Source of the DNA: a virus
Lineage: Duplodnaviria > Heunggongvirae > Uroviricota > Caudoviricetes
Length of the DNA: 14,454 nt
Strand: one strand, 5' to 3'
Virus record (IMG/VR): IMGVR_UViG_2778261009_000003
Location: 1 to 14,454 of that record
Part shown: piece by piece, positions 1-14,454 of the stretch
Layout: each line of letters opens with the position of its first letter
Numbering within the stretch: position 1 is the stretch's first letter
Position numbers and translations under genes: made by a program
Notes under the pieces: model-generated
Database searches by the model: none
What the model saw: only the letters and a program-made list of their open reading frames with translations
What the model was told of the DNA's origin: nothing

Positions 1-128
1 GCTGGAAAGGCTGGGCCATACTCCTCCGGCAGAAGCAGAAAAAGCTTATTATGCTTCCATCGGAAACGATGATCTGGCAGCCTGAGTTCACAGATAAAAC
101 ACTCTCCAGGAAACCCGGGGCGGTTCAG
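1..128. repeat. Left copy of a perfect 128-bp inverted repeat (partner 14327..14454)
   Basis: Checked base by base: the reverse complement of 1..128 equals 14327..14454. The match stops at position 129 (g, where the partner strand would give t). This copy lies inside the HAD reading frame. Confidence 0.95.
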
Positions 129-548
129 GTGAAGTCGCTACGTGAAGCGGTTCATGAAGTGAATGGAATATGGAAATTTGCCCTTACAGATACTGATACA
201 GCTAAATTACAAAATTTCAATCAAACCGTTGAAGAAGAGCTTGGGCTTACATGCGAATGGTCGTGGCATGACCAAGTAGATATAGCACAAACCGGAAACA
301 GCAAAGGTAAACGATTGGCACAATGGGTTGAGTCTCAGGGTTTATCAATGAACCAAGTTATTGCTTTTGGGGATAACCATAACGATCTTAGTATGCTAAA
401 AAATGCTGGTCTTGGCGTGGCTATGGGTAATGCCGTAGATGAAGTGAAAGAATGTGCTGATTTAGTGATAGGAACTAACATGGAATCAGGAATTGCTGAG
501 ATAGTTAACAGATATTTTGATCATGTACCTGCACAAAATGTTTTATGA
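3..548 (+). CDS. Cof-type HAD-IIB family hydrolase (sugar-phosphatase-like), 5'-partial, runs off the window start
   Basis: Frame 3 is open from position 3 with no stop; stop codon at 546-548. The C-terminal motif VIAFGDNHNDLSMLKNAGLGVAMGNA matches the HAD motif III/IV region of Cof/YbiV-like phosphatases as I remember them. About 41% GC in a hand-counted 100-nt sample. Confidence 0.75.
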   Translation, partial: WKGWAILLRQKQKKLIMLPSETMIWQPEFTDKTLSRKPGAVQVKSLREAVHEVNGIWKFALTDTDTAKLQNFNQTVEEELGLTCEWSWHDQVDIAQTGNSKGKRLAQWVESQGLSMNQVIAFGDNHNDLSMLKNAGLGVAMGNAVDEVKECADLVIGTNMESGIAEIVNRYFDHVPAQNVL

Positions 549-575
549 TTTTGAAACTACTAGGAGAGTTGACCA

Positions 576-785
576 ATGACAGATGAACAATTTGAAAATA
601 ACTATCCAAGAGATCAATATAGCTACGTACGTAAGAGCTTTAGAACCAAAGGGACAATGGGACAAACAGAAATTGAAGTCTTTGATATTGTCACAAAAGG
701 TACTGGTGAAGTTGTGCTCACAGCGACACGAACAGAACATACTAATCTGCGTGGTTTAAACACTACAGTTAACTGGGATTGGTAA
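576..785 (+). CDS. Small hypothetical protein (69 aa), probably host-encoded
   Basis: ATG at 576 preceded by AGGAG (562-566) with 9-nt spacing; followed by a hairpin at 800-827. No family recognised. Confidence 0.55.
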   Translation: MTDEQFENNYPRDQYSYVRKSFRTKGTMGQTEIEVFDIVTKGTGEVVLTATRTEHTNLRGLNTTVNWDW

Positions 786-793
786 TGATTAGC

Positions 794-830
794 AAAAATA
801 AAGCCCGCTCAATTTACTGCGGGCTTTGTA
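794..830. terminator. Rho-independent terminator-like hairpin, probably bidirectional
   Basis: Stem aaagcccgc (800-808) pairs with gcgggcttt (819-827) around a 10-nt loop; A-run upstream on plus gives a U-tract on the minus strand. Sits where composition shifts from host-like to AT-rich. Confidence 0.5.
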
Positions 831-859
831 GATCATAAGATTATCTGAGAACTCTTGAA

Positions 860-889
860 TTCGACAATCTATTCATCGGTGATTAAAAT
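860..889 (+). promoter_or_regulatory. Candidate sigma70-like promoter (TTCGAC, 18-nt spacer, TAAAAT) that would give a near-leaderless transcript for the 897 ORF
   Basis: Hexamers read by eye at 860-865 and 884-889. No Shine-Dalgarno precedes ATG 897. Weak evidence. Confidence 0.2.
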
Positions 890-896
890 CTCTTAT

Positions 897-1601
897 ATGA
901 AAAAACATCATTTTAAAAAATTAGTTAAACAAATTAAATTTTCTCATATAGCTTGTTTAGCAGTCGGAATACTGATCCCGATATATATAGATGTCTTAGG
1001 TTTTCATGAATTTAATAGTTCTACTGTATCTGCCATTATGGATACAGTATTGGCAAGCATTGCTACTTATACACTATATAAAGTCAAAAATTGGTACAAT
1101 GAAAAGACACATACGAAAGGATTCGAACAAGCAAATAATTTTATTGTTCATTTATCCGATGCTAAATTAAAGTCAGAAAAAGTATTTGAGCACATAATGA
1201 ATATGTATTGCTATTTAGGCACCAAAAATTTGGGAAAAACAGACCCACATTATGAAAAACTCAATAATGAAATTGAGACATTATGGTTAGATTTTAAAAC
1301 TCATTTATCTGTGCTTTCTTCACAAAAAGACATATTAAAAGTTTGGGAAATCGAAATAAGACCAGATCAACGAGATGGCATAACCCAGTACATTAGTACT
1401 TTATATAAATTTTCAGAGCTTAGCCAAATGATGATCTTTTCATATAAAGATGTTAATGGCATGGCTCGTAAAAAATCATATGAGTTCAATCAAATTAGCT
1501 TCAATCAATGCTATGCCTTAACACAGATTCTATCTACATCTTGGATGAACACCTGGAGGTCATTATTTGTAATTACTAAGTCAACCACCCACCATGATTA
1601 A
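897..1601 (+). CDS. Hypothetical membrane protein with two predicted N-terminal TM helices and a roughly 170-aa soluble domain
   Basis: Long open frame in very AT-rich DNA (about 26% GC in sample 901-1000), where chance ORFs of this length are unlikely. The ORF track starts at TTG 855; ATG 897 (MKKHHFKKL) is preferred. Hydrophobic segments IACLAVGILIPIYIDVLGF and VSAIMDTVLASIATYTLY. Start uncertain. Confidence 0.5.
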   Translation: MKKHHFKKLVKQIKFSHIACLAVGILIPIYIDVLGFHEFNSSTVSAIMDTVLASIATYTLYKVKNWYNEKTHTKGFEQANNFIVHLSDAKLKSEKVFEHIMNMYCYLGTKNLGKTDPHYEKLNNEIETLWLDFKTHLSVLSSQKDILKVWEIEIRPDQRDGITQYISTLYKFSELSQMMIFSYKDVNGMARKKSYEFNQISFNQCYALTQILSTSWMNTWRSLFVITKSTTHHD

Positions 1602-1871
1602 AAGTATCTGTAGTAGCTCACCTAGTGGAATTTGTATTAATACAATACCAAACGCATCAAGAACAGGAACAATTATCCAATTATATAAAATGATTAGGGA
1701 AAGTACAAAACCAAGGAAGTTTCTCCAGTGAAAGGTGTTTTGCTCAATTTCAATTTTATTTGTCTCAATCTGTCCATCAGTGTTAGTTTTATGTTCCTCT
1801 TTTTCAATTATTTTTGTCTTTGTAAAAAGACTCATTATCGTACTAATTAATACGGAGATTGCATTTATCAT
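1581..1871 (-). CDS. Small membrane protein (96 aa) with a hydrophilic middle and two C-terminal TM helices
   Basis: ATG at 1871 with AAGGA 8 nt upstream; begins 12 nt after the stop of the upstream minus-strand ORF. Its 3' end overlaps the 3' end of the convergent 897..1601 ORF by 21 nt. Confidence 0.5.
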   Translation of the reverse strand: MINAISVLISTIMSLFTKTKIIEKEEHKTNTDGQIETNKIEIEQNTFHWRNFLGFVLSLIILYNWIIVPVLDAFGIVLIQIPLGELLQILLIMVGG

Positions 1872-1882
1872 ATTTCATTTCC

Positions 1883-2203
1883 TTATTGTAACTGGCATAC
1901 GACTGACCAAACGCGATGACCTTTGTAGACTTGATTAAAACATGACAGTACTGCTACTGTCTTATTATCACCAAGACATACGGTATCGAGTACATCACCA
2001 TCATTAACATTCGGAATATTGTTTAGATTGAAACTGAATACAATCAAATTCCCTTTACTCTTATCTACCTTCTTTTTAATTAACTTGCTACCCGAAAACA
2101 CTTTGTCATATGGCAAAGTAACACTTACAGGTTTGACGTTTTGAAATAGGAATTCATCCAGTACGGTATGGTCATAACAGGGATATTGATCAAGTATATT
2201 CAT
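1883..2203 (-). CDS. Hypothetical protein (106 aa if started at the internal Met; track ORF starts at 2215)
   Basis: Internal ATG at 2201-2203 is preceded by GGAG at about 6-nt spacing and overlaps the stop of the upstream ORF (TAATG). No family recognised. Confidence 0.45.
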   Translation of the reverse strand: MNILDQYPCYDHTVLDEFLFQNVKPVSVTLPYDKVFSGSKLIKKKVDKSKGNLIVFSFNLNNIPNVNDGDVLDTVCLGDNKTVAVLSCFNQVYKGHRVWSVVCQLQ

Positions 2204-2796
2204 TATTTTCTCCATTTATATTCGAATGTACCACTCATAGTTTGAAGTTGTCGTAATACCATTTTTTCGGTTGTGTCATAAAAATCAAATATTGGTTTTC
2301 TTCCAACACTTCCATAATAACCAATAACACGTTCCTTACTCGTTTTCGTCTTCTTGGTAGTGTCGATTAGATATGTCTTTCCAGACGTCTTACTCTTCAC
2401 TTTTTTATATTTATCGTTCTTACGCTTTGATTTAAGTTGACTTATATTACCCTGTTTTGTCTTCTTGGCGTTTTGGTATGGGATCGCTTTATATTCCTTA
2501 TTCCCTACATAATCAGGGTCAATAATATGCTTTAAGTATCTCGCCTGATTTCCCAGTACTATAATCTGGTTTACACTCTCAAATTCATTAAGCCGTTTAA
2601 AATTAAAGTACATCGCTCTACCCGTATATGGAATTACACCACCATCTACTTCCTGGTTAATTTTATGCTGTATCTGTTGGGTAACATTACGCATACGATT
2701 ACTTAGTTCTTTTTTGAAGTGTTTACCGATCTTTGGGGAATTTTTATTAACAAATTTTTTCATATCATCTGGTGAATGACCATTCTTCCATTTCAT
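2203..2796 (-). CDS. Lysine-rich basic protein (197 aa), putative DNA-binding partner with a NUMOD3-like N-terminal motif
   Basis: ATG overlaps the upstream stop as ATGA; GAGAGG RBS 6 nt upstream. N-terminus KNGHSPDDMKKF resembles the NUMOD3 motif of GIY-YIG homing endonucleases (from memory). Lys-rich tract KSKRKNDKYKKVKSKTSGK. Confidence 0.5.
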   Translation of the reverse strand: MKWKNGHSPDDMKKFVNKNSPKIGKHFKKELSNRMRNVTQQIQHKINQEVDGGVIPYTGRAMYFNFKRLNEFESVNQIIVLGNQARYLKHIIDPDYVGNKEYKAIPYQNAKKTKQGNISQLKSKRKNDKYKKVKSKTSGKTYLIDTTKKTKTSKERVIGYYGSVGRKPIFDFYDTTEKMVLRQLQTMSGTFEYKWRK

Positions 2797-3221
2797 GATA
2801 ACCTCTCTAATAATTGTTGCAGTACTTTGAATGTTTCAGAACGATTTTTACCAAGCCGTACTTTACACATCACGGCAAGATTCAAATTATTTGATTGCTG
2901 TCCTAAGAATAGAATCAACGCCGCTTCTACCTGCTCGGCTTCATTCGTCGTACTGAAACACCATAGTATTTGTTTTTCATAGTTCAGACCTGAATCGACC
3001 ATTGCCTGCACTTTCTTTGAGGAAGAATAATAATTCTCCCAGTTGGATTCCTTTGTAGTTGGCTTCAGCTTCTTTACATCCCGAATACCTTTGAAGATTG
3101 ACTTTACACCAAAATAATATGAACCATCGTCAAAAGTGATCATATATACAAAAGCTGCATACCTCCCGTCATTTATATCTTCATAATCCCATGTCTCAGG
3201 ATCATGCATTGTCCATTTCAT
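2793..3221 (-). CDS. GIY-YIG-like nuclease domain protein (about 142 aa from ATG 3221; track ORF starts at TTG 3236)
   Basis: Motif FVYMITFDDGSYYFG fits the GIY-(10 aa)-YIG spacing; Arg 8 residues after, then NEAEQVEAAL and SNNLNLA resemble the I-TevI Glu and Asn regions (from memory, not aligned). About 31% GC. Confidence 0.5.
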   Translation of the reverse strand: MKWTMHDPETWDYEDINDGRYAAFVYMITFDDGSYYFGVKSIFKGIRDVKKLKPTTKESNWENYYSSSKKVQAMVDSGLNYEKQILWCFSTTNEAEQVEAALILFLGQQSNNLNLAVMCKVRLGKNRSETFKVLQQLLERLS

Positions 3222-3257
3222 ATAAATACCCCACAAACAATAATTTATGAGGTATTT

Positions 3258-3704
3258 ATGTGTTTAAGAGAAAAATTAAAAGTATATGAAGGTACGAAAG
3301 AATACCAAGCCCATATGGGTTATTATCGCAATGGTAAATTCTGGGTGTATAAATGTAGTGAGAACAAAGATACGATTGGATATGGACATCTACTAAAAGC
3401 CTCTGAATCGTTCTCTAACGGCATTAACGAGGATGAAGCAGATAAACTACTGGATAAAGATATTGGCATTGCCAAACGTGATTTATCTACCTTAAATTTG
3501 AAATTACCACAGGACTGGGAAGACTTCATGGTTATTATGATTTTTCAGTTAGGCTTAGGTGGTACTAAGAAGTTTAAAAAGATGATCATTGCATTACAAA
3601 ACAATAATTATACAGAAGCAATTAAACAGGCAAAGGATAGTTTATGGTATCGTCAGACACCGAATAGACTTGACAAAATGATTAAAGATTTAATTAACAA
3701 ATAA
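3258..3704 (+). CDS. Phage lysozyme / endolysin, GH24 T4-lysozyme-like
   Basis: TIGYGHLL and SLWYRQTPNR closely parallel T4 lysozyme TIGIGHLL and SRWYNQTPNR. GAGG RBS 6 nt before ATG 3258 (track ORF starts at 3204, rejected). No signal peptide or SAR-like N-terminus. Confidence 0.8.
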   Translation: MCLREKLKVYEGTKEYQAHMGYYRNGKFWVYKCSENKDTIGYGHLLKASESFSNGINEDEADKLLDKDIGIAKRDLSTLNLKLPQDWEDFMVIMIFQLGLGGTKKFKKMIIALQNNNYTEAIKQAKDSLWYRQTPNRLDKMIKDLINK

Positions 3705-3735
3705 AAAAGGGGCATTAAGCCCCTTTTTATTTTTC
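3703..3735. terminator. Bidirectional rho-independent terminator between convergent genes
   Basis: A-run, GGGGC stem, ATTAA loop, GCCCC stem, T-run; lies between the lysozyme stop (3702-3704) and the 88-aa gene stop (3727-3729). Confidence 0.65.
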
Positions 3736-3993
3736 AAGTATCACAAGAATACGTGCAATATCTACTTCAAGTCGTCTGATTGATTCATCAACTGACTTAA
3801 GAGTAATCTTCATAGCTTCATGCTCACTTCGTAATGTAGTAACAGATTGTTCTACAAGTGCAAGTCGTGTTTCTACTGAGGCAAGACGTGCTTCTATTTC
3901 TGCATCATCAGTCTTATTATCACGAATGATAGTCCAGATTAATGCTACAAAAGTTAGAAAAACTGCAATCCCTGCAATTACCAATTCTACCAT
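3727..3993 (-). CDS. Small membrane-anchored coiled-coil protein (88 aa), possible lysis-associated (holin- or spanin-like) protein
   Basis: One N-terminal TM segment (LVIAGIAVFLTFVALIWTII) then a heptad-like charged helix. AAGGGA RBS upstream. No embedded lipoprotein ORF found in other frames, so not a classic Rz/Rz1 pair. Function is a guess. Confidence 0.45.
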   Translation of the reverse strand: MVELVIAGIAVFLTFVALIWTIIRDNKTDDAEIEARLASVETRLALVEQSVTTLRSEHEAMKITLKSVDESIRRLEVDIARILVILEK

Positions 3994-4055
3994 TCCCTTT
4001 AGTTCCCTTTTTAATTATTATAGGTAGTTTTTAGGCTACCCATATTTATTTAGTT

Positions 4056-7000
4056 TTAGTTACTAACGGGGTTCTCACCACTACGGAATAAGAAGAGATC
4101 AAGTCTGTCACCTGGTAGATTATTGTTTCCCTGATGTTCGCCTATATCCAGTCCACATGAACCACTACGGCCATCTGAAGCCATTACATATAGATAATTC
4201 ATCTTACCCCTACCTACAGCAGGAATTTGAATATTATCAATTTTATATGAAACTGGCGTATCTTCACCACCGGAACCTGCATCATAACCCCATAATAGAC
4301 GGTTTGCTATTCCATCCCCACCAACAAACACTTGAAAATAGTTCCACTTCCAGCATGTAAAATAAAAACTCATATTACTATTCAGAGTCCTTGCAAAGTC
4401 CTCCCCTTTAATACGCAATCCTACATATAGTCGACCTGGTTCTGGTCTATAGTTTTCTGGGAATTCTACCCCAGGAGGTGCCCATACGTTCCCCTGTCGA
4501 TTAACTCCAGTACTTTGAGGTCTGCACTGATCACCAACAATACGTGATGCATTAAGAGTACCAAGAATTGTACAGTCCTGGTTAATAGTAACATTATTCA
4601 TGGTTCCACTGGTTGCCTGAATATTACCCCGTACTGATACGTCCTGGAAGCTTGCCTTACCATTCTTATTGATCATCCAGCCTGTACTACCATTCCAGTT
4701 TGTAGATTGAATTTGCTGGGATATTTTTGCTGAGTCGATAACCCCGTTAACTATGTGTCCATTAAGGATTGAAGCATTGGCTATGCGAGCTGAGTCGATT
4801 GCTGCTATCTGAATTTTCGCACGCGAAACGGCAAGGTCATTTATCTGCCCTGTGTTTATACTCGCGTCTCCAATGACCGCACTATTGATATAAGTCTTAC
4901 CATTCTGAACTACAAACGGATATACCTTATCAGTCTGTTTAGCACTGTCAGTAGAAATAATACTGAAACGATCTGCCATTACCGTAAATGCTGAGTTTTT
5001 CCCGTCATTAGCAAGTGATACACCTGACACGTTGCCGTTATTCGTCACCTGAACCTGCCAGCGTGAACCAAGGTCATCAACAATATGTTTCTCAATAATG
5101 CCTGTGGCAACATCTGAATTCAGTAATTCATCTACAACATCATCATTTAGCTTTGAGTACGGAACTTTAGTATTCTGGTTAAAACCAATAGTTGGCGACC
5201 ATACTAATTCATCCTGTCCCATTACATCATATGCTGCAAGACGTCCGAACCACGATCCATCCTCTATCCCAAATGAAGCTGAGAAGCGGTTAGAAGAACT
5301 GAAATAGTGAACATCCGAACTAAAACCCTCATCCTTAGCACACTGGAACACTACACCAGAATAGTCTGGTACGTTTGATTCATCCCATTCTAAGAACACA
5401 TTATCATAGCCATTACGCAAACGTACACCAAGTAATTGGGGGTGCTGTGGGTTACTTACTTCAATCTGTACTTCTTCTGAATAAATTCCAGTACCGTGAC
5501 CGTGGGCAATAATACCAATTACACGATATCTGTTAAGTCCATCAGATTGATTCATTGCAAAGGTATATATCCAGTTAAAGTCCGTTGTAAAGTACGACTT
5601 AATATATGTACGATAACGGTCATACACACGAATTTCATAATATTTGAAAAAATCAGAGAATCGTTTTCCATTTACTGGCAAAGTACTTTGTTCATCCCAT
5701 CTGAATATAAAATCTTGTGAATAAGTCTGGTTCAATCCCATATTATCGTTAGTCATATCAAGATTAGTAATCTTTGGTAGGGCAAAAATCACCTGTGGAG
5801 TTTGATTATAAATTGCAACTAACTCAGATGAATAACCGAGAGTGTTATACGCCTCAATACCAAAATCATATTTAACACCGTGGATTAGATTCAGTATCTG
5901 AAACTCTGTGGTGTACTGTCCTACGTTACCAATCGAGATCCATGTATTCGAATCACTGCGTTTATATCTAATCTTATAACCCCGTACGCTTGAATCCTGG
6001 CTTAAATCCCATGTCATAAGCACGGCATTACCGTTAACGGTTGCACCAAGTTTCTGCACCTGCAAGTTTGATGGAGGTTCTACGTATGTCGCGTTTGGTA
6101 GATTTGTGATCCCGTCCTGTGGGAATCGTCCATGGTCTTTCCCCTGATATATGCCGTCCGCATAGGCTATAGCGGTAATCTGTACGACACCAGTCTTATC
6201 TACGGTCATCGGTACAGTACGTTGTATTACACGGAACTTATTATTAACAAATCCGGCTTCTTTGAAACTGAGTGTAAAAACATCGTAGACTGTGAGATCG
6301 GTAACGTATGTGTTAAAAGTTATACTATTAAGAACATACTTAGATTTTAATAGTTCGGTATTAGCCATTTTAGCAAGTTGTTTTTTGTCCTGAATCCATT
6401 TTAGATTAAGGTCTTTTTTAATGATTAAACCATCCCGTACCACTGTTTCATTTGTAAGCGTATCACTTGGATAACGAATAATATCTTCTGAGTAATCACC
6501 GCCTGGGTTTGTATAGGTCACATCGAATACGTTCGCATAATCCGTATTAGAACCAGTTGTGATATTCACAGTACCGAGAATGTTTTTTTCATCAAAATGA
6601 TATAGTGGGACATCGGCAGTATCTACGGTGAGATACATAATACCATTCGATTCATATATTACACCACCGAATGTAGACAAGATGCTTTCAAGGTTTTCTT
6701 TATATGACTTATCATAGGCAATAGCACCATTTGAATATAGTTCATTATTCTTACAGTACATTGCACAATTACGAAATGATGCAATATCAATATCATTAGG
6801 ATCAGTGTTGAAACCAAATTCATTATTTGTGATAAAGTCATATAACTGACTCGGTGGATTACTGGAGGGTTTACGAATGTTATCAGTAAGGTCATAAATT
6901 AGACGTCCTTTCATCTCCAATGAAAGTGCATAGTTTTGATTCACTAAAATACCATCAGTCAGACTACCATTAGTCTTACGGATAACCGAACAAACCTGTA

Positions 7001-7613
7001 CTAATCCATCACCACGCATTTCATCAGTCCAGCGAGATCCGCCATATTGCCGGGCAAGTGTCATAGAACCACCATAAGACGGCTTTCCAAAACGAATTTC
7101 GAGCTGGAGGAAGTTACGATACTTCTCACGCATAAGGGATGTAGAAACAATACCCTCACTGGTTATTTCGGCATCATCTAGTAAGATTGGACTGTTATCA
7201 AAGTATACCTGTTTAATTACGGCACCAGATTGTGCACCTGGAGCACGTCCGATCTCCCCGATACTAATAGCATGCACTGTGCATAGTTGGTTACTTTGTC
7301 CCTTATAGACGTTCTGCCATACGACAATGGAACCTACCTTAACAAATGATTCTTCGGTCAGGCTTCTATTAGTACCGCCATATACAATCGGTATCCCAGT
7401 ACTGGGTGAAGTACTTCGAGAGTTAACCGTTCCAGTACTGGGATAGTTTACCCCCTGATCTCCAACACGCATCATCTGGGAGGATGCAACATAGGATAAT
7501 GCTGCTACACCAACACCAATAGCGATAGATGCTGCAAGACCCACTGCTGCGTAAGCTGCGGCGGCGGCTGATGCACCTGCTATTACTGCTGTTAATACGG
7601 CTGCTACTGCCAT
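4056..7613 (-). CDS. Host specificity protein J-like central tail fibre / tail tip protein (1185 aa) with an N-terminal gpI-like hydrophobic extension
   Basis: C-terminal SGTMNNVTINQDCTILGTLNASRIVGD parallels lambda J SGTLSNVTIAENCTINGTLRAEKIVGD (from memory). FN3-like segment around KIRYKRSDSNTWISIG. GGAGGG RBS 7 nt upstream. About 46% GC. Confidence 0.85.
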   Translation of the reverse strand: MAVAAVLTAVIAGASAAAAAYAAVGLAASIAIGVGVAALSYVASSQMMRVGDQGVNYPSTGTVNSRSTSPSTGIPIVYGGTNRSLTEESFVKVGSIVVWQNVYKGQSNQLCTVHAISIGEIGRAPGAQSGAVIKQVYFDNSPILLDDAEITSEGIVSTSLMREKYRNFLQLEIRFGKPSYGGSMTLARQYGGSRWTDEMRGDGLVQVCSVIRKTNGSLTDGILVNQNYALSLEMKGRLIYDLTDNIRKPSSNPPSQLYDFITNNEFGFNTDPNDIDIASFRNCAMYCKNNELYSNGAIAYDKSYKENLESILSTFGGVIYESNGIMYLTVDTADVPLYHFDEKNILGTVNITTGSNTDYANVFDVTYTNPGGDYSEDIIRYPSDTLTNETVVRDGLIIKKDLNLKWIQDKKQLAKMANTELLKSKYVLNSITFNTYVTDLTVYDVFTLSFKEAGFVNNKFRVIQRTVPMTVDKTGVVQITAIAYADGIYQGKDHGRFPQDGITNLPNATYVEPPSNLQVQKLGATVNGNAVLMTWDLSQDSSVRGYKIRYKRSDSNTWISIGNVGQYTTEFQILNLIHGVKYDFGIEAYNTLGYSSELVAIYNQTPQVIFALPKITNLDMTNDNMGLNQTYSQDFIFRWDEQSTLPVNGKRFSDFFKYYEIRVYDRYRTYIKSYFTTDFNWIYTFAMNQSDGLNRYRVIGIIAHGHGTGIYSEEVQIEVSNPQHPQLLGVRLRNGYDNVFLEWDESNVPDYSGVVFQCAKDEGFSSDVHYFSSSNRFSASFGIEDGSWFGRLAAYDVMGQDELVWSPTIGFNQNTKVPYSKLNDDVVDELLNSDVATGIIEKHIVDDLGSRWQVQVTNNGNVSGVSLANDGKNSAFTVMADRFSIISTDSAKQTDKVYPFVVQNGKTYINSAVIGDASINTGQINDLAVSRAKIQIAAIDSARIANASILNGHIVNGVIDSAKISQQIQSTNWNGSTGWMINKNGKASFQDVSVRGNIQATSGTMNNVTINQDCTILGTLNASRIVGDQCRPQSTGVNRQGNVWAPPGVEFPENYRPEPGRLYVGLRIKGEDFARTLNSNMSFYFTCWKWNYFQVFVGGDGIANRLLWGYDAGSGGEDTPVSYKIDNIQIPAVGRGKMNYLYVMASDGRSGSCGLDIGEHQGNNNLPGDRLDLFLFRSGENPVSN

Positions 7614-7614
7614 G

Positions 7615-8004
7615 TTATTTCCCTCCGAATCTATAAATTTTATAATTGTTTTCTATTGGTTCATATTTCATTACTGTATAGACACCATCGATTAAAATGA
7701 TTACTTTACCTCTCCAGTACACAGTAGATTGGGAGCCAGTAATTAGGATATCCCCATCAAATGGTTCTACTTGTTTTATACCCAGATCATTACATAGGGC
7801 ATTTAGTGATTTATATGAACAATGTTCTTTTGCGTACTTTCGACCGCCAGTAGGTGACGTATATTTCTGATAGATTTCGTCCCTGTAATTTGTACCAAGA
7901 TGCATATCAATAACAGTCAGAGACATGATATGACAATCATTTTCACCGTATACAATTGGCTGACCGATTAGAGTACTAAGATATTCTGTAATAAATCCAT
8001 TCAT
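7615..8004 (-). CDS. Minor tail protein (129 aa), K-like position, partial NlpC/P60-like signature
   Basis: GQPIVYGENDC and GDILI resemble the NlpC/P60 G-x-P-Y-x-W-G-x-x-D-C-S-G and GDLVFF motifs, but no His follows. Start overlaps the upstream stop (TAATG). Confidence 0.45.
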   Translation of the reverse strand: MNGFITEYLSTLIGQPIVYGENDCHIMSLTVIDMHLGTNYRDEIYQKYTSPTGGRKYAKEHCSYKSLNALCNDLGIKQVEPFDGDILITGSQSTVYWRGKVIILIDGVYTVMKYEPIENNYKIYRFGGK

Positions 8005-8648
8005 TATTTTTTACTCGCTTGCCAAAACTGCTCTGAACTATTTAGTATTCCGATTAGATCAAAGAACTTATCACCCTTATGGGTTGATTGGTGAATTGAT
8101 GTACTTGATAGTAGACGTTGTGTCTGGTCTAATTTCTTCCATATGGAATTGAGATTAACAGTGGTTTCATTCTGTGTGTTAGTTCCATCTACAGAAAAAT
8201 CACTGCTAAAATAATCTATATATCCACTAAAAATACGATAACGGTAAAGAAGTGCACCTGTTGCAGGGTTAACGATCCCCATCCAGATATTAACTTTGGC
8301 ATCTTTCCACAATCCTCTTAAAGCAAGGGAAAGATAATCCTGGCTTACGTTACTAATCTTAAACGTAGTACCGGTATTATTGATCTGATTCTTTTCTACA
8401 TAGTTCGCAAAGGATGAATCAATTAGATCTGGAATTGGTTTATATACAATGCCATTGATATTCTGTTCTACTACTGCATCAGTAAGGTATAGATTACTTC
8501 CTGTAGGAGGTAATAGATCAATCAGTTTTACCATGATTCCACACTGGTATAATTCCCTTTCTGTAAGAACTGACTTATTATCACCCCGCATTAGATTCCA
8601 GTACTTTACTAATTCTGGGTTACTTAGTACATTGTTTGGAATTGCCAT
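8004..8648 (-). CDS. Minor tail protein (214 aa), L-like position
   Basis: Translationally coupled within the tail operon; AAGGGG RBS upstream. Assigned by position only; lacks the Cys cluster of lambda L. Confidence 0.45.
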   Translation of the reverse strand: MAIPNNVLSNPELVKYWNLMRGDNKSVLTERELYQCGIMVKLIDLLPPTGSNLYLTDAVVEQNINGIVYKPIPDLIDSSFANYVEKNQINNTGTTFKISNVSQDYLSLALRGLWKDAKVNIWMGIVNPATGALLYRYRIFSGYIDYFSSDFSVDGTNTQNETTVNLNSIWKKLDQTQRLLSSTSIHQSTHKGDKFFDLIGILNSSEQFWQASKK

Positions 8649-8649
8649 A

Positions 8650-9204
8650 TTATCCCCTTATATTCTCTGTTGCCGTAATTGTCATTTCAATAATATTCGT
8701 ACTTGGTAAGTCATATGTAGAGTTAGCAGGTGTAAGAATAAAAGAACCCATTAGATTATCGTATTTTACTGTTTCCCCTATCTGGATATTTCGGATCAGT
8801 CCTGGGTAGATATTCAGAGTCGTTCCACTACGGGCAATAACACGATAGAGTTTTTTGTGTCCTGAGAATTGAATTAAATCACCTGGGGAAAGGTTATTAG
8901 TATTGGTCTGAATAGATGTAGCCCCGGCTGTACGGGCTGCTGTTACCTGTACACCTGTCGCCTGATTACCTGAATAATCACCCCACCAACCAAGAGACAT
9001 ATCAAAAGGTCTGCCATTGGAATAGAGTGCAAGAAAGTTTGTTAAATCGGTTCTGTATTTTTTACTTGTTGTAACCTTAAAACTTATGCTGAAGTACTGT
9101 GTTCCGACAATACGGGTAATTACCTCACCAGACCATGTTTTGTTTTGGTATTGGGGGATATTATCAGAAAGTACAAAATCACTTATTAGAGAGTTATTAA
9201 ACAT
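8650..9204 (-). CDS. Minor tail protein (184 aa), M-like / distal tail position directly after the tape measure
   Basis: Position and AAGGA RBS. No diagnostic motif. Confidence 0.45.
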   Translation of the reverse strand: MFNNSLISDFVLSDNIPQYQNKTWSGEVITRIVGTQYFSISFKVTTSKKYRTDLTNFLALYSNGRPFDMSLGWWGDYSGNQATGVQVTAARTAGATSIQTNTNNLSPGDLIQFSGHKKLYRVIARSGTTLNIYPGLIRNIQIGETVKYDNLMGSFILTPANSTYDLPSTNIIEMTITATENIRG

Positions 9205-9219
9205 ATATTTTCCTTATAA

Positions 9220-9237
9220 AGCCCACATGAATGTGGG
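9220..9237 (-). other. Intergenic hairpin between tape-measure stop and next gene start
   Basis: gcccaca / tgaa / tgtgggc, 7-bp perfect stem; followed on the minus strand by a short U-run and then the RBS. Confidence 0.3.
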
Positions 9238-9251
9238 CATACTGTATTTAC

Positions 9252-11513
9252 TTAGACGTTCCTCTGTTGGCTTTTACGTACTGCCTGGGTGATAGTATCG
9301 GCGTGTTTATCACACATACTCTGGAATTTTGAATCTGTGAGTTCTCCGGCACCCTGAATAATTAAAGGGGCATCAATTTTAATATCACCACCTTTATCAC
9401 TCCCCTTATTATTCAAGTACTGTGTTAAGTCCTGGTTCAGAGATTTACCTACAACACGTTCACCTTTTTCAAGATTATATGTACCAGTCTTCGGTAGTGA
9501 GTCCCAACCATCATGTGCCTGACCTTCAATCTTTGTACCCTTAATCGTACTGACAATATTGGCACCTTCGGCTGCAACCTTAATACCCGCAGCGATGCCT
9601 GTAGGCCAGCCAAGCTTCATAGCCTCAGAAATACCCTGCTGAATATTGATAATAGACTGGGCAACTGCGATCCCTTTGCTCATTGCAAATGCAGCTTTTG
9701 CCATAGCATTACTTTCACCAAATACACCTGCAAGAGTAGTACCGAGATCCTGAGCACCCGTTGCATACATAGAAAGTGTCTTTTGCTGGGCATCAATATT
9801 AGCCTGACTCATTTTGTCTGTAGTAGATTGTTGAATTGCTACCATGCGATCTTGGTAATCCTGATAACTTAATAACTTCTGTTCATACAGACTTTGATTC
9901 AGTGCTAATTCGGCCTGTCCTTCTGTTGCTAATGTATCGAGCGTGTTCTGATCGGCACTCATATTTAATGGATCTTGATTAAGTCCCATACGTTCGTTTT
10001 GACCTGCCAGTACTGAATTAAGGTCTTTTCCTGACATAGAACCACCAATTGCCGAAATATTCTGGGCAAGTTTAAGTGGATCACTTTCAGTGAGCATTGA
10101 ATTAACCATTTCTTTATACAGGCGTTTACGTGAATCAGTCTGCTTTCTTAATAGTTCAGTCTTTTCAGCTTCAGTTTTACCAAGAGTATCTGCACTTATT
10201 TTAATGCGTTGTTCTATTTCATCCTGGGTCTTATTAAATTGTTGTAGCTGTAGGGCAGCACCATTACCTGCAATACCATTCATAGTCTGTTCCAGTACTT
10301 TGGCAGCCTGGATACGATCCTTTGCGGCCTTATCACTGGCTTTTTTCGCTTCTTCCCCTGCTTTACCATCATCGAAGTTAGAACGCTCTTTTGTCGTTCC
10401 TGTATATGCCTTTGTAGTTGGTTTATAGTCTTCCTGTGAATATTCACGGGCAAAGGCAGCAAGACCACCAATACCTGGTCCAAGTGGTGAAAAAACTGCA
10501 TCGGCTGCTGTCTGTACGTGTTTACGTCCTTTTGCTATTTGCTCGGGTGTAAACTCGGGTAATTCAAGGCCAATCTTTGATCCTAAATTACGGATCATGT
10601 CATAGAATTTAACGACCTGATCGTATAACGACTGTATGATCGTGTTTTTTGAATCCCAGTTAAAGAATGAATTAATAAACTCAACTGCTTTTGTTTTGAG
10701 GTTGTCAAACCATTGATATATTTCCTTACAGGCTTTTACGAGTCCATTAAAAATATCAATGAGGGGTGTAACAATTTCAAATGCAAGAGTTTTCAGTCCG
10801 TTACCAAGACCTGAAGTATTCTGACTTAACAGATCAAATGTTTTTGCCTGTTCATTAGTCATTGCTACGTTCTGGGCTGCAAGAGAGTTATTAAATTCAA
10901 TCTCACTATTAAAAGAGTTGAATGTAGGTATTAGTTTTGCAGCATCACCACCGAGAGCATTAATCATGTTTGTAATTTCGGCAAGATTTGCACCATTCTT
11001 TTTCATCTCAAAAAAGACTTTTGACAATGCCTGTAAACCACCATCAGCCTGTTTTAATGTTGGTATTAGGCTCTTTACATCTACGCCGAATGTTTTCAAG
11101 TCACCGCCAACGCCAGAACCGTCCGCAGACGCAATACCAAGTTGATCCATCACTGCTTCGTTAATCGAACCAACTTCTTCCATAGATAATCCTATGGTTT
11201 TGAATGCCCCTGACCACTGCTGGAGTTGCTCGGCACTTAGTCCGGTTGTGCGTGTCAATGCGTTGATGTCGTTTGCAAGTCCAATTGTATATGTGGTCAG
11301 TGCTGTAATAGCTGTAATTGCCATTGTTGCCGCATTACCAACACCACCAAGACCAGTTGCCATTGAACTTAGGCCACCACTAATACCACCAAATACACTA
11401 CCAGCACGATCACCAAAGTCGGCAAGTCCATTGCCAGCACTTTTTAAAGATTTTTGTAACCCAGATTCATCACCTGTGATTTCAAAAATCATCTGTTGTT
11501 TATTCCCTGCCAT
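9252..11513 (-). CDS. Tail tape measure protein (753 aa)
   Basis: Large Ala/Gly/Gln-rich ORF with low-complexity helical stretches, immediately downstream of the G/GT chaperone pair; its ATG lies 1 nt after the T-frame stop. Confidence 0.85.
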   Translation of the reverse strand: MAGNKQQMIFEITGDESGLQKSLKSAGNGLADFGDRAGSVFGGISGGLSSMATGLGGVGNAATMAITAITALTTYTIGLANDINALTRTTGLSAEQLQQWSGAFKTIGLSMEEVGSINEAVMDQLGIASADGSGVGGDLKTFGVDVKSLIPTLKQADGGLQALSKVFFEMKKNGANLAEITNMINALGGDAAKLIPTFNSFNSEIEFNNSLAAQNVAMTNEQAKTFDLLSQNTSGLGNGLKTLAFEIVTPLIDIFNGLVKACKEIYQWFDNLKTKAVEFINSFFNWDSKNTIIQSLYDQVVKFYDMIRNLGSKIGLELPEFTPEQIAKGRKHVQTAADAVFSPLGPGIGGLAAFAREYSQEDYKPTTKAYTGTTKERSNFDDGKAGEEAKKASDKAAKDRIQAAKVLEQTMNGIAGNGAALQLQQFNKTQDEIEQRIKISADTLGKTEAEKTELLRKQTDSRKRLYKEMVNSMLTESDPLKLAQNISAIGGSMSGKDLNSVLAGQNERMGLNQDPLNMSADQNTLDTLATEGQAELALNQSLYEQKLLSYQDYQDRMVAIQQSTTDKMSQANIDAQQKTLSMYATGAQDLGTTLAGVFGESNAMAKAAFAMSKGIAVAQSIINIQQGISEAMKLGWPTGIAAGIKVAAEGANIVSTIKGTKIEGQAHDGWDSLPKTGTYNLEKGERVVGKSLNQDLTQYLNNKGSDKGGDIKIDAPLIIQGAGELTDSKFQSMCDKHADTITQAVRKSQQRNV

Positions 11514-11514
11514 A

Positions 11515-11835
11515 TTATTTTCTTCCCATCCAGTTTAACATGTTTGCTCTCTGTTCTTCGGCGATCCGTTTCTCTCTCTCTTCGGCTTGTTCTTTAATGG
11601 TCTTATTGTTGATGATATTAAGAGAGTCCAATTCTGTGATACTGAATTTCTTTAAGTCTTCCTTCTTAATATTCCCAGTACTGAGCCATATAGCCTGGAG
11701 TATTTCGGTATGTCTTACCTGTTCAATTCGGGAAGAATTTGGTTCTACAAAAGTGTCATATACAAATAGATAGATAAAAAGCGAAAAGGGCATGGTGCAG
11801 AGATCTTCCACACCACACCCTTTTGTCATCAGCAT
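11515..11835 (-). CDS. Tail assembly chaperone T segment, probably expressed as a G-T fusion via -1 frameshift
   Basis: This ORF is in the -1 frame relative to G. Its frame is open upstream to a TGA three codons before the G stop, so it overlaps the slippery site. Confidence 0.6.
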   Translation of the reverse strand: MLMTKGCGVEDLCTMPFSLFIYLFVYDTFVEPNSSRIEQVRHTEILQAIWLSTGNIKKEDLKKFSITELDSLNIINNKTIKEQAEEREKRIAEEQRANMLNWMGRK

Positions 11836-11867
11836 TTTTAGAGAAAGTTTAAGAAACGGATCGCCTC

Positions 11868-12158
11868 TTACTTTTTTTCAATTTCTTCAATATTCATAGC
11901 TTCGGTAAAAATACGCGTGATTTCGGTATTAAGTTTGATTTGATAAACCATGTCAATTTCGCTTTCTACCTGTTCTGGTGATTTAAAAAGTTGTTTGCCA
12001 TCGACATCAACTACACAGTAATGAATTGTAGTGTACGGGTCACTACATTCACTATACTTAGAAATAGCTGGAAGACGAATATAAACAGTAAACCCCGGAG
12101 CAAGTTCAAAGGCATGTTTTTTGACACCAATTGCTGTCATTAGATTAGATAGATCCAT
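11868..12158 (-). CDS. Tail assembly chaperone G-like (96 aa)
   Basis: Small acidic protein between tube and tape measure; ends ...EIEKK* with slippery heptamer A-AAA-AAG directly before the stop. Confidence 0.65.
   Translation of the reverse strand: MDLSNLMTAIGVKKHAFELAPGFTVYIRLPAISKYSECSDPYTTIHYCVVDVDGKQLFKSPEQVESEIDMVYQIKLNTEITRIFTEAMNIEEIEKK
11871..11877 (-). other. Programmed -1 ribosomal frameshift slippery heptamer A_AAA_AAG (G/GT)
   Basis: Minus-strand aaaaaag (plus-strand ctttttt at 11871-11877) in the zero-frame register gaA AAA AAG TAA. Same heptamer as the E. coli dnaX shift site. Confidence 0.6.
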
Positions 12159-12190
12159 GTGTATTTTTTCCTTATTATGATTATTTTATA

Positions 12191-12667
12191 TTATGGTTTT
12201 GCTGCGATTTCACCAACTGCTACAGGTTGTCCCGTAATTGTCATGACGAATTCACGTGTCGCGACAGAATCAAAATCCCCACCGACAACATCAGAACTGA
12301 TATAGCCATTAACTACAGAGTAATAACCCGCACCATCGGTATCAGCGATGTTTTCGTAATAGGTTACTTTTACCTGCATAAGCGTCTGTTTTTGAGCTGC
12401 GGTAACTAACATCTCCTGTCCTACTGCCCCTGGTTTCCAGTTCACAGATAGGGTTAGATCGGGTACAGAACGAGAACCTAATAGCTTCTGTGCGTACTGC
12501 TTACCAAATGTATTTACTGAAATGATTGTACTCTCGGCACCTGCTGCTGATGGGAAAGCTGCAACTTCTTCAATTACTGTATAAGTGGTTGCCTGACCAC
12601 CACCTGCTGGTGCTTCTGCAATTTCTACTACAACGTTATTCGCTGCGAAAATTCGATTAAAAGCCAT
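12191..12667 (-). CDS. Major tail (tube) protein (158 aa)
   Basis: Size and position directly upstream of G/GT and tape measure; AAGGA RBS 8 nt upstream. No motif-level confirmation. Confidence 0.65.
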   Translation of the reverse strand: MAFNRIFAANNVVVEIAEAPAGGGQATTYTVIEEVAAFPSAAGAESTIISVNTFGKQYAQKLLGSRSVPDLTLSVNWKPGAVGQEMLVTAAQKQTLMQVKVTYYENIADTDGAGYYSVVNGYISSDVVGGDFDSVATREFVMTITGQPVAVGEIAAKP

Positions 12668-12688
12668 TTTAATTTCCTTATTTAATTA

Positions 12689-12707
12689 GGGTAACGTCCT
12701 GTTACCC
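12689..12707 (-). other. Intergenic hairpin upstream of the tube gene
   Basis: gggtaac / gtcct / gttaccc, 7-bp perfect stem, between the 533-aa ORF stop (12718-12720) and tube start (12667). Confidence 0.3.
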
Positions 12708-12717
12708 GTTTCCTTTT

Positions 12718-14319
12718 TTATTTATGAAGATTGTAGTACTGCACATATAGCCCCAATCCGCGTAAAAGTTCACCCGAATAGAAACTAAAGAACATACTAT
12801 TGTTTTCGGCAGTTGTTTCATTACCTGTTCTGATTGACGCAGGCCATGTACCATTCATTACATGATTTGGTGAAATAACTGCATAGTTAAGTTGTATTTC
12901 ATCAAATAGTAATTGAATTAGCTCATGGTCTGGATATCCGGCGATAGCCATCATGCATGCCCCTGCTAACCATAGACCTGACATATGAGGGGTAAAGCCA
13001 TCATATTCTACAGAACCATTATCCCTAAAATAGGTAGGAGCTTTACCGACATTATTTTTCATGAACCATTTTAGATAGTTCATCCAGTTCTGACAGAAAG
13101 ATATTAGTTTAGGAGGTATTACAGTACTGTCTTGTCGTGACCATAATTCATGTACTGCATCACACCCACCAAAGAAAGCCCTTGGTTCGTATCCACTCCA
13201 TGCTTCGGCGTACCAGTGCTGCATTATGAATTGATCTGGTTTACCATCAGGAGCATATGCTAAAGCGTCCTGTCTGTTCCATACGAAAGCCTGTGCACAT
13301 GGTCCTGGTAAAGATGGTTTAAATTTATTTTTAAACCATGCCTGAGAATCATATAGAAAATTGATACTGTTATTTAAGCGAGTATGATCTATTTCTGTTC
13401 CTTTAAAGCACCAGATCGCCGGTAGTTGATAACCAGGATACGGTAGACCACGCCAGCCAGAATATAACTGGGCATAGGGATCGGTAATGTTAGAGAACGG
13501 AATTAAACCGGGAGTATACGCAAGACTATCTAACATATAATCTTTAATAGTACAGTCACCTAATCGTGCTGTGTATCCATTACCAGTTGTGTCGTTAAAC
13601 GTAAGCAGTACTGTGACCGAATAATCACCTGTCCCAGCATCTGTATACATCGCAGGCAAATCATTAATACAATACCAGTCAATCTTTCCATTCACACCAT
13701 TTACTGGATCTGTATCAAGTAGCAGTGTGAAAGATTCACGGTTCGTTAGTACTGGGCTTGCTGGAATTGGATCTGGTTGAATCCATTCTCCTGGGTTATC
13801 TGGATCTTCAATTTCGGGGTGATCTGGTTGATAACCGTTTAGTTTGAAGTCAGCAATAGTAAAAGTCTTTGTAACCCATTCACCATTTGTTGCAGGGAGC
13901 ATAGCCCACCAACGCCATTTATTATCATCACTTATACGAAAGTTAAAATCATCATCATATGAACGATAGGTAAAAGACTGAATATTGGCAGTCTCTGGTG
14001 TGAATATCCAAAACCCCACCACCTGTCCCCCGTCACCATCCATTGTTGTAGACACGACGTTATCGTAATACTTCCCAAGTACTCCACTCTGATATTCAAA
14101 GTTTGTTACCGTGTTATCTCCATAATCGGCAATCATACGTAGATCGGCAGTCATATAATTAGAGCCATCTGGTTTCATCACACGTGTGAAACGATTCATA
14201 GGAATGTCCATTGTAGTAATAGATCCATCTGGATTAGTCATTGGTAAGCCACACCGATAATCAATTGCACCCTCTTCTGTCTTTGTTTTATTCACTGTGA
14301 CTTCAGCAGATACTGACAT
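12718..14319 (-). CDS. Large hypothetical protein (533 aa), Trp/Tyr/Asn/Asp-rich, enzyme-like; possibly 5'-truncated at the inverted-repeat junction
   Basis: 1.6-kb open frame. The only start is ATG 14319, 7 nt inside the junction, with no Shine-Dalgarno; the frame is open upstream into the repeat until a stop. Not recognisable as capsid, portal, terminase or sheath. Confidence 0.55.
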   Translation of the reverse strand: MSVSAEVTVNKTKTEEGAIDYRCGLPMTNPDGSITTMDIPMNRFTRVMKPDGSNYMTADLRMIADYGDNTVTNFEYQSGVLGKYYDNVVSTTMDGDGGQVVGFWIFTPETANIQSFTYRSYDDDFNFRISDDNKWRWWAMLPATNGEWVTKTFTIADFKLNGYQPDHPEIEDPDNPGEWIQPDPIPASPVLTNRESFTLLLDTDPVNGVNGKIDWYCINDLPAMYTDAGTGDYSVTVLLTFNDTTGNGYTARLGDCTIKDYMLDSLAYTPGLIPFSNITDPYAQLYSGWRGLPYPGYQLPAIWCFKGTEIDHTRLNNSINFLYDSQAWFKNKFKPSLPGPCAQAFVWNRQDALAYAPDGKPDQFIMQHWYAEAWSGYEPRAFFGGCDAVHELWSRQDSTVIPPKLISFCQNWMNYLKWFMKNNVGKAPTYFRDNGSVEYDGFTPHMSGLWLAGACMMAIAGYPDHELIQLLFDEIQLNYAVISPNHVMNGTWPASIRTGNETTAENNSMFFSFYSGELLRGLGLYVQYYNLHK

Positions 14320-14326
14320 TGCAGTA

Positions 14327-14454
14327 CTGAACCGCCCCGGGTTTCCTGGAGAGTGTTTTATCTGTGAACTCAGGCTGCCAGATCATCGTTTCCGATGGAA
14401 GCATAATAAGCTTTTTCTGCTTCTGCCGGAGGAGTATGGCCCAGCCTTTCCAGC
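14327..14454. repeat. Right copy of the perfect 128-bp inverted repeat (partner 1..128)
   Basis: Exact reverse complement of 1..128; an inverted duplicate of HAD-gene coding sequence fused to the 5' side of the 533-aa ORF. Confidence 0.95.

Follow-up and report, generated by a model that had tools for sequence, protein, structure and literature searches.

Two genes for membrane proteins that converge so closely that their 3′ ends overlap raise the question of whether they act as one functional unit or merely meet. The pair considered here lies in a 14,454-nucleotide (nt) stretch of DNA from a virus of the Caudoviricetes (the window; positions 1 to 14,454 of IMG/VR record IMGVR_UViG_2778261009_000003). 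The rightward gene (897..1601, plus strand, ATG start) encodes a 234-amino-acid (aa) inner-membrane protein of an uncharacterised family, termed 2TM below for its two predicted transmembrane (TM) helices. The leftward gene (1581..1871, minus strand, ATG start) encodes a 96-aa protein assigned to the PF11351 family of 3TM-type holins and is the last gene of a lysis operon. The two share 21 nt at 1581..1601, where the last six codons and stop of the 234-aa open reading frame (ORF; STTHHD*) lie antisense to the last codons and stop of the holin gene. The pair is probably, if far from certainly, an ordinary boundary where two independent modules meet at a prophage's left end, an account that requires the holin identity of the 96-aa protein, the cargo status of the 234-aa gene and the accidental nature of the overlap to hold jointly.

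The host context is provided by two complete Escherichia coli chromosomes, FDN-9 and FDN-24, to which positions 126-4100 of the window are 99.9% identical. The FDN-9 counterpart is the left end of a ~34.6-kb prophage that splits the host gene ybhA, and its PGAP annotation holds the identical pair with the identical overlap (L001, 12772-13476 on the plus strand and 13456-13746 on the minus strand). Other loci and proteins are likewise cited by L and P numbers where they need to be told apart.

Two constrained genes and a probable holin

It is scarcely credible that one of the two ORFs is a chance product of AT-rich DNA. The region is certainly AT-rich (GC content 0.30 for the 234-aa gene and 0.31 for the 96-aa gene, against 0.40 for the structural genes, with the lowest 500-nt value of the window, 0.296, at 1001-1500), no Shine-Dalgarno sequence precedes ATG 897, and the window copy of the holin scores under its Pfam cut-off. 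However, both ORFs have large families of homologues of constant length, the 234-aa protein has a confidently predicted fold, and PGAP calls both genes. The ratio of non-synonymous to synonymous substitution rates (dN/dS) is 0.10-0.38 for moderately diverged pairs of the 2TM family, and in the holin family the proportion of non-synonymous differences (pN, ~0.2) is far below that of synonymous differences (pS, 0.8-0.98). The homologue families and selection data effectively refute the chance-ORF reading already. An initial annotation of this DNA had described a convergent pair of membrane proteins with a 21-nt 3′ overlap in the most AT-rich part of the region, and had named purifying selection as a check. 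On each of these points it is borne out: both ORFs are present and constrained, both fall where the window is poorest in GC, and both products have hydrophobic segments in hydropathy profiles, which in the 234-aa protein are modelled by AlphaFold as a helical hairpin.

The 96-aa protein has 189 relatives at 64-95% identity, nearly all of 97 aa, so that the window protein is one residue shorter than nearly all of them. Many of them go by the name '3TM-type holin' or have PF11351 assigned, and a precomputed match to this family or the holin name is found in many relatives at 64-70% identity. When aligned relatives were compared with the PF11351 model, 28/28 matched at E<=0.01 (best E 1e-6). Membership of the window copy follows by transitive homology, because its own score is below the cut-off but its relatives match. 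Its hydrophobic segments cover residues 4-22 (Kyte-Doolittle (KD) hydropathy 1.5) and 50-96 (KD up to 2.3, two helices), and an AlphaFold2 (AF2) model likewise has three helices (2-16, 49-73 and 83-94), with a mean predicted local distance difference test (pLDDT) score of only 64. The family is strongly constrained (mean column identity 74-80%) and its membrane helices are highly conserved. Holin activity has been demonstrated for one PF11351 member, ICP1 TeaA (10.1101/790493).

The matching partner is an endolysin of the T4-lysozyme type at 3258..3704 on the plus strand (PF00959, E 1e-9; its PGAP start corresponds to window 3258). Lacking a hydrophobic N-terminal signal, the enzyme needs a holin. 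The family matches, together with this signal-less PF00959 endolysin 1.4 kb away, identify the 96-aa gene as the phage's own holin gene and not as cargo, and the proposal that its product is an exclusion factor falls accordingly. By analogy with tested members of the family, the holin would build up in the inner membrane late in the infection cycle and let the endolysin through; this lysis function of the 96-aa protein is predicted from its family membership.

The overlap and the start of the cargo gene

If the pair were selected as an overlapping unit, the arrangement would be expected to recur. Among ~20 distinct loci it is found in the lineage of the window only; elsewhere the two genes are separated by a gap of 12-73 nt, or by more where another gene intervenes. 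In 8/10 directly adjacent 2TM/holin pairs that were examined, a bidirectional terminator in the form of a GC-rich hairpin between A- and T-runs occupies the gap, and a hairpin of the same kind lies downstream of the holin gene of the N61 prophage. This prophage is 97% identical to that of the window from the holin rightwards and has an unrelated, frameshifted gene in the 2TM slot; its homology starts exactly at the holin stop codon. No terminator hairpin is present between the 234-aa and holin genes of the window. The relatives P0010, P0012 and P0013 stop at the position that aligns with K228, and the last six codons of the window gene (STTHHD) appear to be a run-on into holin antisense sequence. 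This base composition predicts a stop codon roughly once in 12 codons (an estimate), so a six-codon run-on after loss of the native stop is unremarkable. The overlap would on this account be a by-product of losing both a bidirectional terminator and the cargo gene's own stop, each of which is kept in relatives.

The overlap had initially been described as rendering the two transcripts mutually antisense. As a conserved feature it does not survive the comparison, since the ~20 related loci converge without overlap and most adjacent pairs hold a bidirectional terminator. Terminators between most pairs are the opposite of what selection for mutual antisense transcripts would be predicted to leave, and neither overlap nor terminator-less convergence is conserved among relatives, as a functional cis-antisense arrangement should be. 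It is nevertheless conceivable that the overlap works as an antisense or interference switch, in which the cargo mRNA of the lysogen silences a leaky holin and the lytic holin-unit transcript silences the cargo gene. No intrinsic terminator is found on either strand between 828 and 2000, and a hairpin at 803-828 has the better of its T-runs on the minus strand, as if to stop leftward transcripts once they have passed the cargo gene. The arrangement is also kept at 99.9% identity in both E. coli genomes, and the identical 234-aa protein has 17 database members. Set against this are the restriction of the overlap to one of the ~20 loci, the insulation of the units by a bidirectional terminator in most relatives and the agreement of the six-codon run-on with chance expectation, and a functional switch is judged improbable.

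Even as an accident, the loss of the terminator would have consequences. Transcripts would be expected to read through in both directions, with rightward ones entering the holin gene and leftward holin-unit transcripts probably crossing the whole cargo gene in antisense, up to the hairpin at 803-828. The terminator-less junction represents a natural experiment on a holin operon and a lysogen gene that lack an insulator between them. The hairpin in question (797..836; stem 803-811/820-828) is GC-rich and flanked by an A-run and T-runs, and is a candidate bidirectional intrinsic terminator with predicted energies of -19.4 kcal/mol on the plus strand and -15.2 kcal/mol on the minus strand, the T-run being better on the latter (TTTATTTTT). 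No other GC hairpin with a T-run occurs on either strand of 780-2000, and L019 and L022 have an equivalent hairpin whose stem sequence differs.

At the start of the 234-aa gene, the absence of a Shine-Dalgarno sequence upstream of ATG 897 (ctcttatATG), reported in the initial annotation, is evident from the upstream sequence, and of the promoter proposed there one part stands. A sigma-70 promoter-like site, TCGACA-17-TAAAAT, lies at 861..889 on the plus strand with 10/12 matches, the best in 500-4100, and 7 nt separate the end of its TAAAAT -10 element from A897, a spacing suited to a predicted transcript start at ~895-897. However, such sites are not in excess (12 found in 500-4100 against 17.1 +/- 4.2 in shuffled sequences), and no promoter was called at the equivalent site of the closest relatives of the module, L019 and L022, which also have no Shine-Dalgarno sequence. 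In other subgroups a GGAG Shine-Dalgarno sequence precedes the 2TM gene, and in Cronobacter and Enterobacter the gene starts 27 nt past the stop of the HAD phosphatase gene to its left. A leaderless transcript of 897-1601 is possible in the window and is not a trait of the family.

Possible functions of the 234-residue protein

The AlphaFold/AF2 model of the 234-aa protein (pLDDT 80.9) has helices at 15-36 and 41-107, of which the first and the start of the second form a membrane hairpin (~15-36 and 41-63), followed by a four-helix bundle (64-216) and a disordered tail in which residues 230-234 have pLDDT <50. Helix 17-36 is a clear TM helix (mean KD 2.04). The initial description of a two-TM protein is upheld by this helix and by the modelled hairpin, and is less secure for helix 42-63, which is only marginally hydrophobic. 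The basic N-terminus has six Lys/Arg residues in positions 1-16, four more follow the hairpin in 62-80 and there are none in the loop, a distribution that predicts an N-in/C-in topology with a cytoplasmic bundle. Sequence conservation is concentrated in the membrane part, mean pairwise identity in the family being 61% in the N-terminal (hairpin) region and 23% in the C-terminal (bundle) region, and the polar hairpin residues D32, S41, S42, T43, S45, D49 and T50 are invariant. Hairpin and bundle recombine independently: P0013 is 77% identical to P0004 in its N-terminal part and 37% in its C-terminal part, the latter being 91% identical to that of P0010.

Homologues are numerous and uncharacterised. 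A word index returned 37 relatives of 212-248 aa at 23-48% identity from Cronobacter, Enterobacter, Klebsiella, Kluyvera and Citrobacter, and a full profile search assembled 188 clusters. Family scans with 24 members (Pfam) and 83 members (Pfam, PADLOC) gave nothing above noise, the only matches being a sub-threshold one to CdiA_C (18.9 bits, cut-off 26.6) and sporadic single ones. The profile of the family found nothing under E 0.15 among Protein Data Bank sequences, tblastn of the 234-aa protein against 50,697 phage records gave no match, and fold searches of BFVD returned uncharacterised phage proteins. In one member, P0195 (461 aa), an N-terminal 8xMP domain (PF24838, E 2e-24) is either a fusion partner or part of the same gene call, and an 8xMP gene (L022, 6215-6898) lies 3.9 kb from a 2TM gene; a functional link between these two membrane families is possible. 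No relevant literature on the 8xMP family was found.

The genomic distribution argues for cargo. Every prophage copy of the 2TM gene is located at a prophage end, where it faces the late genes from the other strand and converges on the holin gene, and 14/14 IMG/VR matches of the family lie within ~2 kb of a provirus end. In Cronobacter and Enterobacter the order HAD-2TM(+)/holin(-) is found at the same ybhA site, and a decayed island shows HAD-2TM-[paralogue-like 250 aa]-holin. Two further chromosomal sites have DNA methyltransferase(-)/2TM(+)/[261-aa paralogue]/holin(-). The slot is variable: N61 keeps a 95%-identical holin without any 2TM gene, and L015 has a distant 2TM paralogue in the same slot (hhalign probability 93%). 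Conversely, a module comprising the HAD gene, a 69-aa ORF and the 2TM gene also occurs on other elements with no holin nearby (L019-L022), in the vicinity of resolvase, DUF3800, SLATT_5, 8xMP and CdiI genes. Phylogenies of the neighbours are discordant, the 2TM and holin proteins being respectively 48% and 40% identical to those of the window in L003 and 23% and 66% in L011.

Some details of the slot deserve record. Its occupant in N61 (L002, 6805-7963) is a gene for 225 + 102 aa with a frameshift in an A-run, in a prophage that is integrated next to yggR and whose methyltransferase gene is truncated to its first 36 codons; this cargo and other slot occupants gave no family matches. Distant paralogues of the 2TM/four-helix-bundle family lie in or near the slot at L015 9782-10567 (-), L033/L035 ~780-1578 (-) and L011 12796-13461 (+), so that some prophages carry two diverged copies on opposite strands. 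In a second subgroup the divergent neighbour of the 2TM gene encodes a ~240-aa protein with an NPPF motif (minus strand; L015 8221-8949, L010 7238-7954 and L011 7261-7986), a motif typical of N6-adenine DNA methyltransferases; these proteins have no Pfam match at E<=0.01.

The 234-aa gene is, then, a prophage accessory gene outside the late operons and in a variable cargo slot, the setting expected of an exclusion protein. At the level of sequence the family shows the hallmarks of conflict genes, namely a conserved effector-like hairpin, a hypervariable and recombining cytoplasmic domain, turnover of paralogues and AT-richness. The basic N-terminus would lie on the cytoplasmic side; the conserved hairpin would act on the membrane or serve for docking, and specificity would come from the variable bundle. 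Position, variability and paralogue turnover make a role in phage exclusion the best hypothesis, and it is tentatively predicted that the 234-aa protein is a superinfection-exclusion or abortive-infection factor. The same guess had been made initially for both members of the pair. For the larger protein, which is of the cargo type and has no known family, it is reasonable; for the 96-aa protein it gives way to the holin assignment.

Two other lines of thought compete with exclusion. The 234-aa protein may lie outside phage conflict altogether, as a lysogenic-conversion membrane protein acting as a stress, signalling or metabolic accessory together with the HAD phosphatase and the 69-aa protein; this is considered unlikely but not negligible. 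Alternatively, it might regulate lysis by acting on the 3TM holin, either as an antiholin-like inhibitor of leaky or superinfecting holin or as a lysis-timing factor. The 2TM gene adjoins a holin gene in >25 loci, across 40-95% holin identity, the membrane hairpin is the most conserved part of the 2TM protein just as the membrane helices of the holin are highly conserved, and antiholins are typically TM proteins encoded beside holins; three family members also have weak Phage_holin_8 matches (E 0.007). However, the 2TM gene is on the strand opposite the holin unit, the module occurs without a nearby holin in L019-L022, N61 has its 95%-identical holin with no 2TM gene, the two phylogenies disagree as described above, and hhalign comparison with the antiholin ICP1 ArrA gave a probability of 0.06%. 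Membership of the antiholins is not supported, given the strand, the holin-free loci, the phylogeny and the lack of similarity to ArrA, and a part in lysis regulation is rated as quite improbable. A more elaborate variant, in which the prophage confers immunity through the lysis machinery, with the conserved hairpin binding the similarly conserved helices of 3TM holins and blocking or prematurely triggering the lysis of superinfecting relatives, and with the terminator loss in E. coli adding a reciprocal antisense switch, is a very long shot.

The preferred account, of a holin gene and a cargo gene that meet by accident, has a number of observations weighing against it. The window holin scores 19.6 bits against a PF11351 gathering cut-off of 24.8 (E 1.3e-3), the holin alignment shows no similarity to ICP1 TeaA in hhalign, and tblastn of the 96-aa protein against the 50,697 phage records gave no match. 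The second helix of the 234-aa protein has a KD of only ~1.1 and is rich in Ser, Thr and Asp, and searches of Pfam, PHROGs, PADLOC and NCBIfam with this protein were negative, placing it in no known defence or exclusion family. Expression of its gene in the lysogen is probable, a view that comes from orientation only, because the gene opposes the late genes and is co-oriented with the ybhA replacement carried by the phage. The tight and widely conserved adjacency to the holin gene could point to a lysis-related role instead. Finally, L029 and L037 also have no clear terminator between the genes, so a terminator-less junction has been tolerated more than once.

The surrounding prophage and known systems

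From left to right the window carries the HAD gene, the 69-aa ORF, the hairpin and the 234-aa gene on the plus strand, followed on the minus strand by the 96-aa, 110-aa, 197-aa and SegE-like GIY-YIG genes; beyond these lie the T4-type lysozyme gene (+), an 88-aa TM/coiled-coil gene and the tail genes. The HAD gene is the 3′ part of a ybhA-like phosphatase gene (126..548, plus strand; Pfam Hydrolase_3, E 4.9e-31) and is the left neighbour of the cargo module. It is cut by IS629, an end of which occupies window 1-~132 (the IS629 match spans 1-135). In FDN-9 the prophage-borne gene is intact at 843 nt, a full-length copy at the left prophage end, and the host ybhA is split into a 5′ fragment adjoining pgl and a 3′ part adjoining modC; a 604-aa serine recombinase is encoded at the prophage end distant from the gene pair. 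Since IS629 interrupts the gene that is intact in FDN-9, the strain of the window lacks both host ybhA and the replacement copy of the phage. A prophage that integrates in ybhA and brings its own full-length ybhA-like gene to the left junction is seen at L001 11204-12423 and L018 16772-19236, and the combination of a ybhA fragment with a full copy recurs in Enterobacter and metagenome loci (L005, L008, L013). It looks as if the phage compensates for the gene that it disrupts on integration.

The 69-aa ORF (576..785, plus strand) has no family match; copies 68-71% identical to it occupy the equivalent place in L019 and L022, and the prophages of Cronobacter and Enterobacter do not carry it. Rfam covariance models applied to window 1-4200 gave no hit at or near gathering scores, and a repeat search around the gene pair found no meaningful repeats. 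The phage has no closely related isolate and no characterised reference, its tail-tip protein being <=30% identical to that of any isolated relative, and literature searches on the protein accessions and on ybhA-integrating prophages found nothing relevant.

The leftward unit that ends in the holin gene contains the 110-aa gene (1883-2215), the 197-aa gene (2203-2796) and, as its first gene, that of a SegE-like GIY-YIG endonuclease (2793-3236; PF19835, E 1.2e-16), all on the minus strand. The ORFs of 1883..3236 are tightly packed or overlapping on this single strand, and their order is conserved in Cronobacter and Enterobacter prophages. The endolysin gene diverges from the holin unit, the lysis gene set is syntenic in relatives, and a strong bidirectional terminator (3704-3728), at which the tail operon ends, directly follows the endolysin gene. 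As a lysis region it is unusual: the holin gene comes last in a unit headed by the gene of the SegE-like GIY-YIG homing endonuclease and also containing two unknown genes. In L011 and L013 HNH genes take the place of the GIY-YIG gene. A spacer of ~36 nt separates the endolysin gene from the divergent GIY-YIG gene.

No spanin pair was recognised in the lysis region of the window (1883-3704). The 88-aa protein (3727-3993, minus strand), whose gene forms the end of the tail operon, has an N-terminal TM helix and a coiled coil, with weak matches to Rz-like spanins, DUF2730 and XhlA, and may be a lysis accessory. A palindrome, AAATACC...GGTATTT, lies in the GIY-YIG/endolysin spacer (window 3219-3262), and the same palindrome is found between the methyltransferase and 2TM genes of relatives (L015 8950-9000, L027, L028). 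The idea that it is a shared operator linking the lysis genes to the 2TM gene was set aside, the mirror-image regions of Shine-Dalgarno sequence plus ATG of divergent genes being the more probable explanation.

Comparison with known systems is most direct for the holin. Like ICP1 TeaA and the GTA_holin_3TM family PF11351 as a whole, to which the holin of the Rhodobacter capsulatus gene transfer agent belongs, the 96-aa protein and its aligned relatives match the family model, the window copy with a score under the gathering cut-off; the protein is small, highly conserved and has three hydrophobic or helical segments, and it is encoded in a lysis region with a signal-less endolysin. It differs from TeaA (182 aa) in having about half its length and no pairwise or profile similarity to it, and from other PF11351 systems in that its gene follows those of a homing endonuclease and two unknown proteins and diverges from that of its endolysin instead of being co-transcribed with it. 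For the junction, the obvious parallels are the convergent-transcription or antisense switches exemplified by pR/pL of coliphage 186 and the 'excludons' of Listeria. These resemble the window in that its convergent units have no terminator and long overlapping transcripts are predicted; they differ in that the terminator loss of the window is specific to its lineage and the relatives insulate the two units.

The 234-aa protein recalls several groups without joining any of them. Like the SLATT effectors with two TM helices, it combines two membrane helices with helical extensions, a SLATT_5 gene lies in the island of the L022 homologue, and 2/24 family members have weak matches (E ~0.01) to DUF4231, which is SLATT-related. 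However, hhalign comparison with the SLATT_5 protein of L022 gave a probability of 0.4% and no SLATT Pfam model matched; for want of profile similarity the protein is not regarded as a SLATT effector. By fold, the top matches among predicted viral structures are two proteins of 'Myoviridae sp. ctoNH1', with E 2.5e-6 and TM-scores 0.68/0.80 for the Myoviridae match, and the 23.2-kDa ORF of the int-cI region of Haemophilus phage HP1 (P51700; E 5e-3), whose gene has a classic lysogenic-conversion position; all come from phages and are of comparable size. Identities to these proteins are 12-15%, the TM-score for HP1 is only ~0.4 and all are uncharacterised, so they assign no function.

A further analogy in kind is to the prophage inner-membrane superinfection-exclusion proteins HK97 gp15, P22 SieA and T4 Imm. 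The 234-aa protein, like these, is an inner-membrane protein of small to medium size whose gene is a prophage accessory lying outside the late operon; the gene is rich in AT, varies from one related phage to another and can give way to other cargo. The protein differs in having no sequence or profile similarity to known exclusion or defence families and in being mostly a cytoplasmic four-helix bundle. Holin assignment and accidental overlap together remove most of the apparent oddity of the pair, and the remaining interest lies in the 2TM/four-helix-bundle family, a compact and uncharacterised family that fills a terminal cargo slot in a widespread group of uncultured enterobacterial prophages. 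Should it prove to be an exclusion or abortive-infection factor, one family would be added to the catalogues of phage defence.

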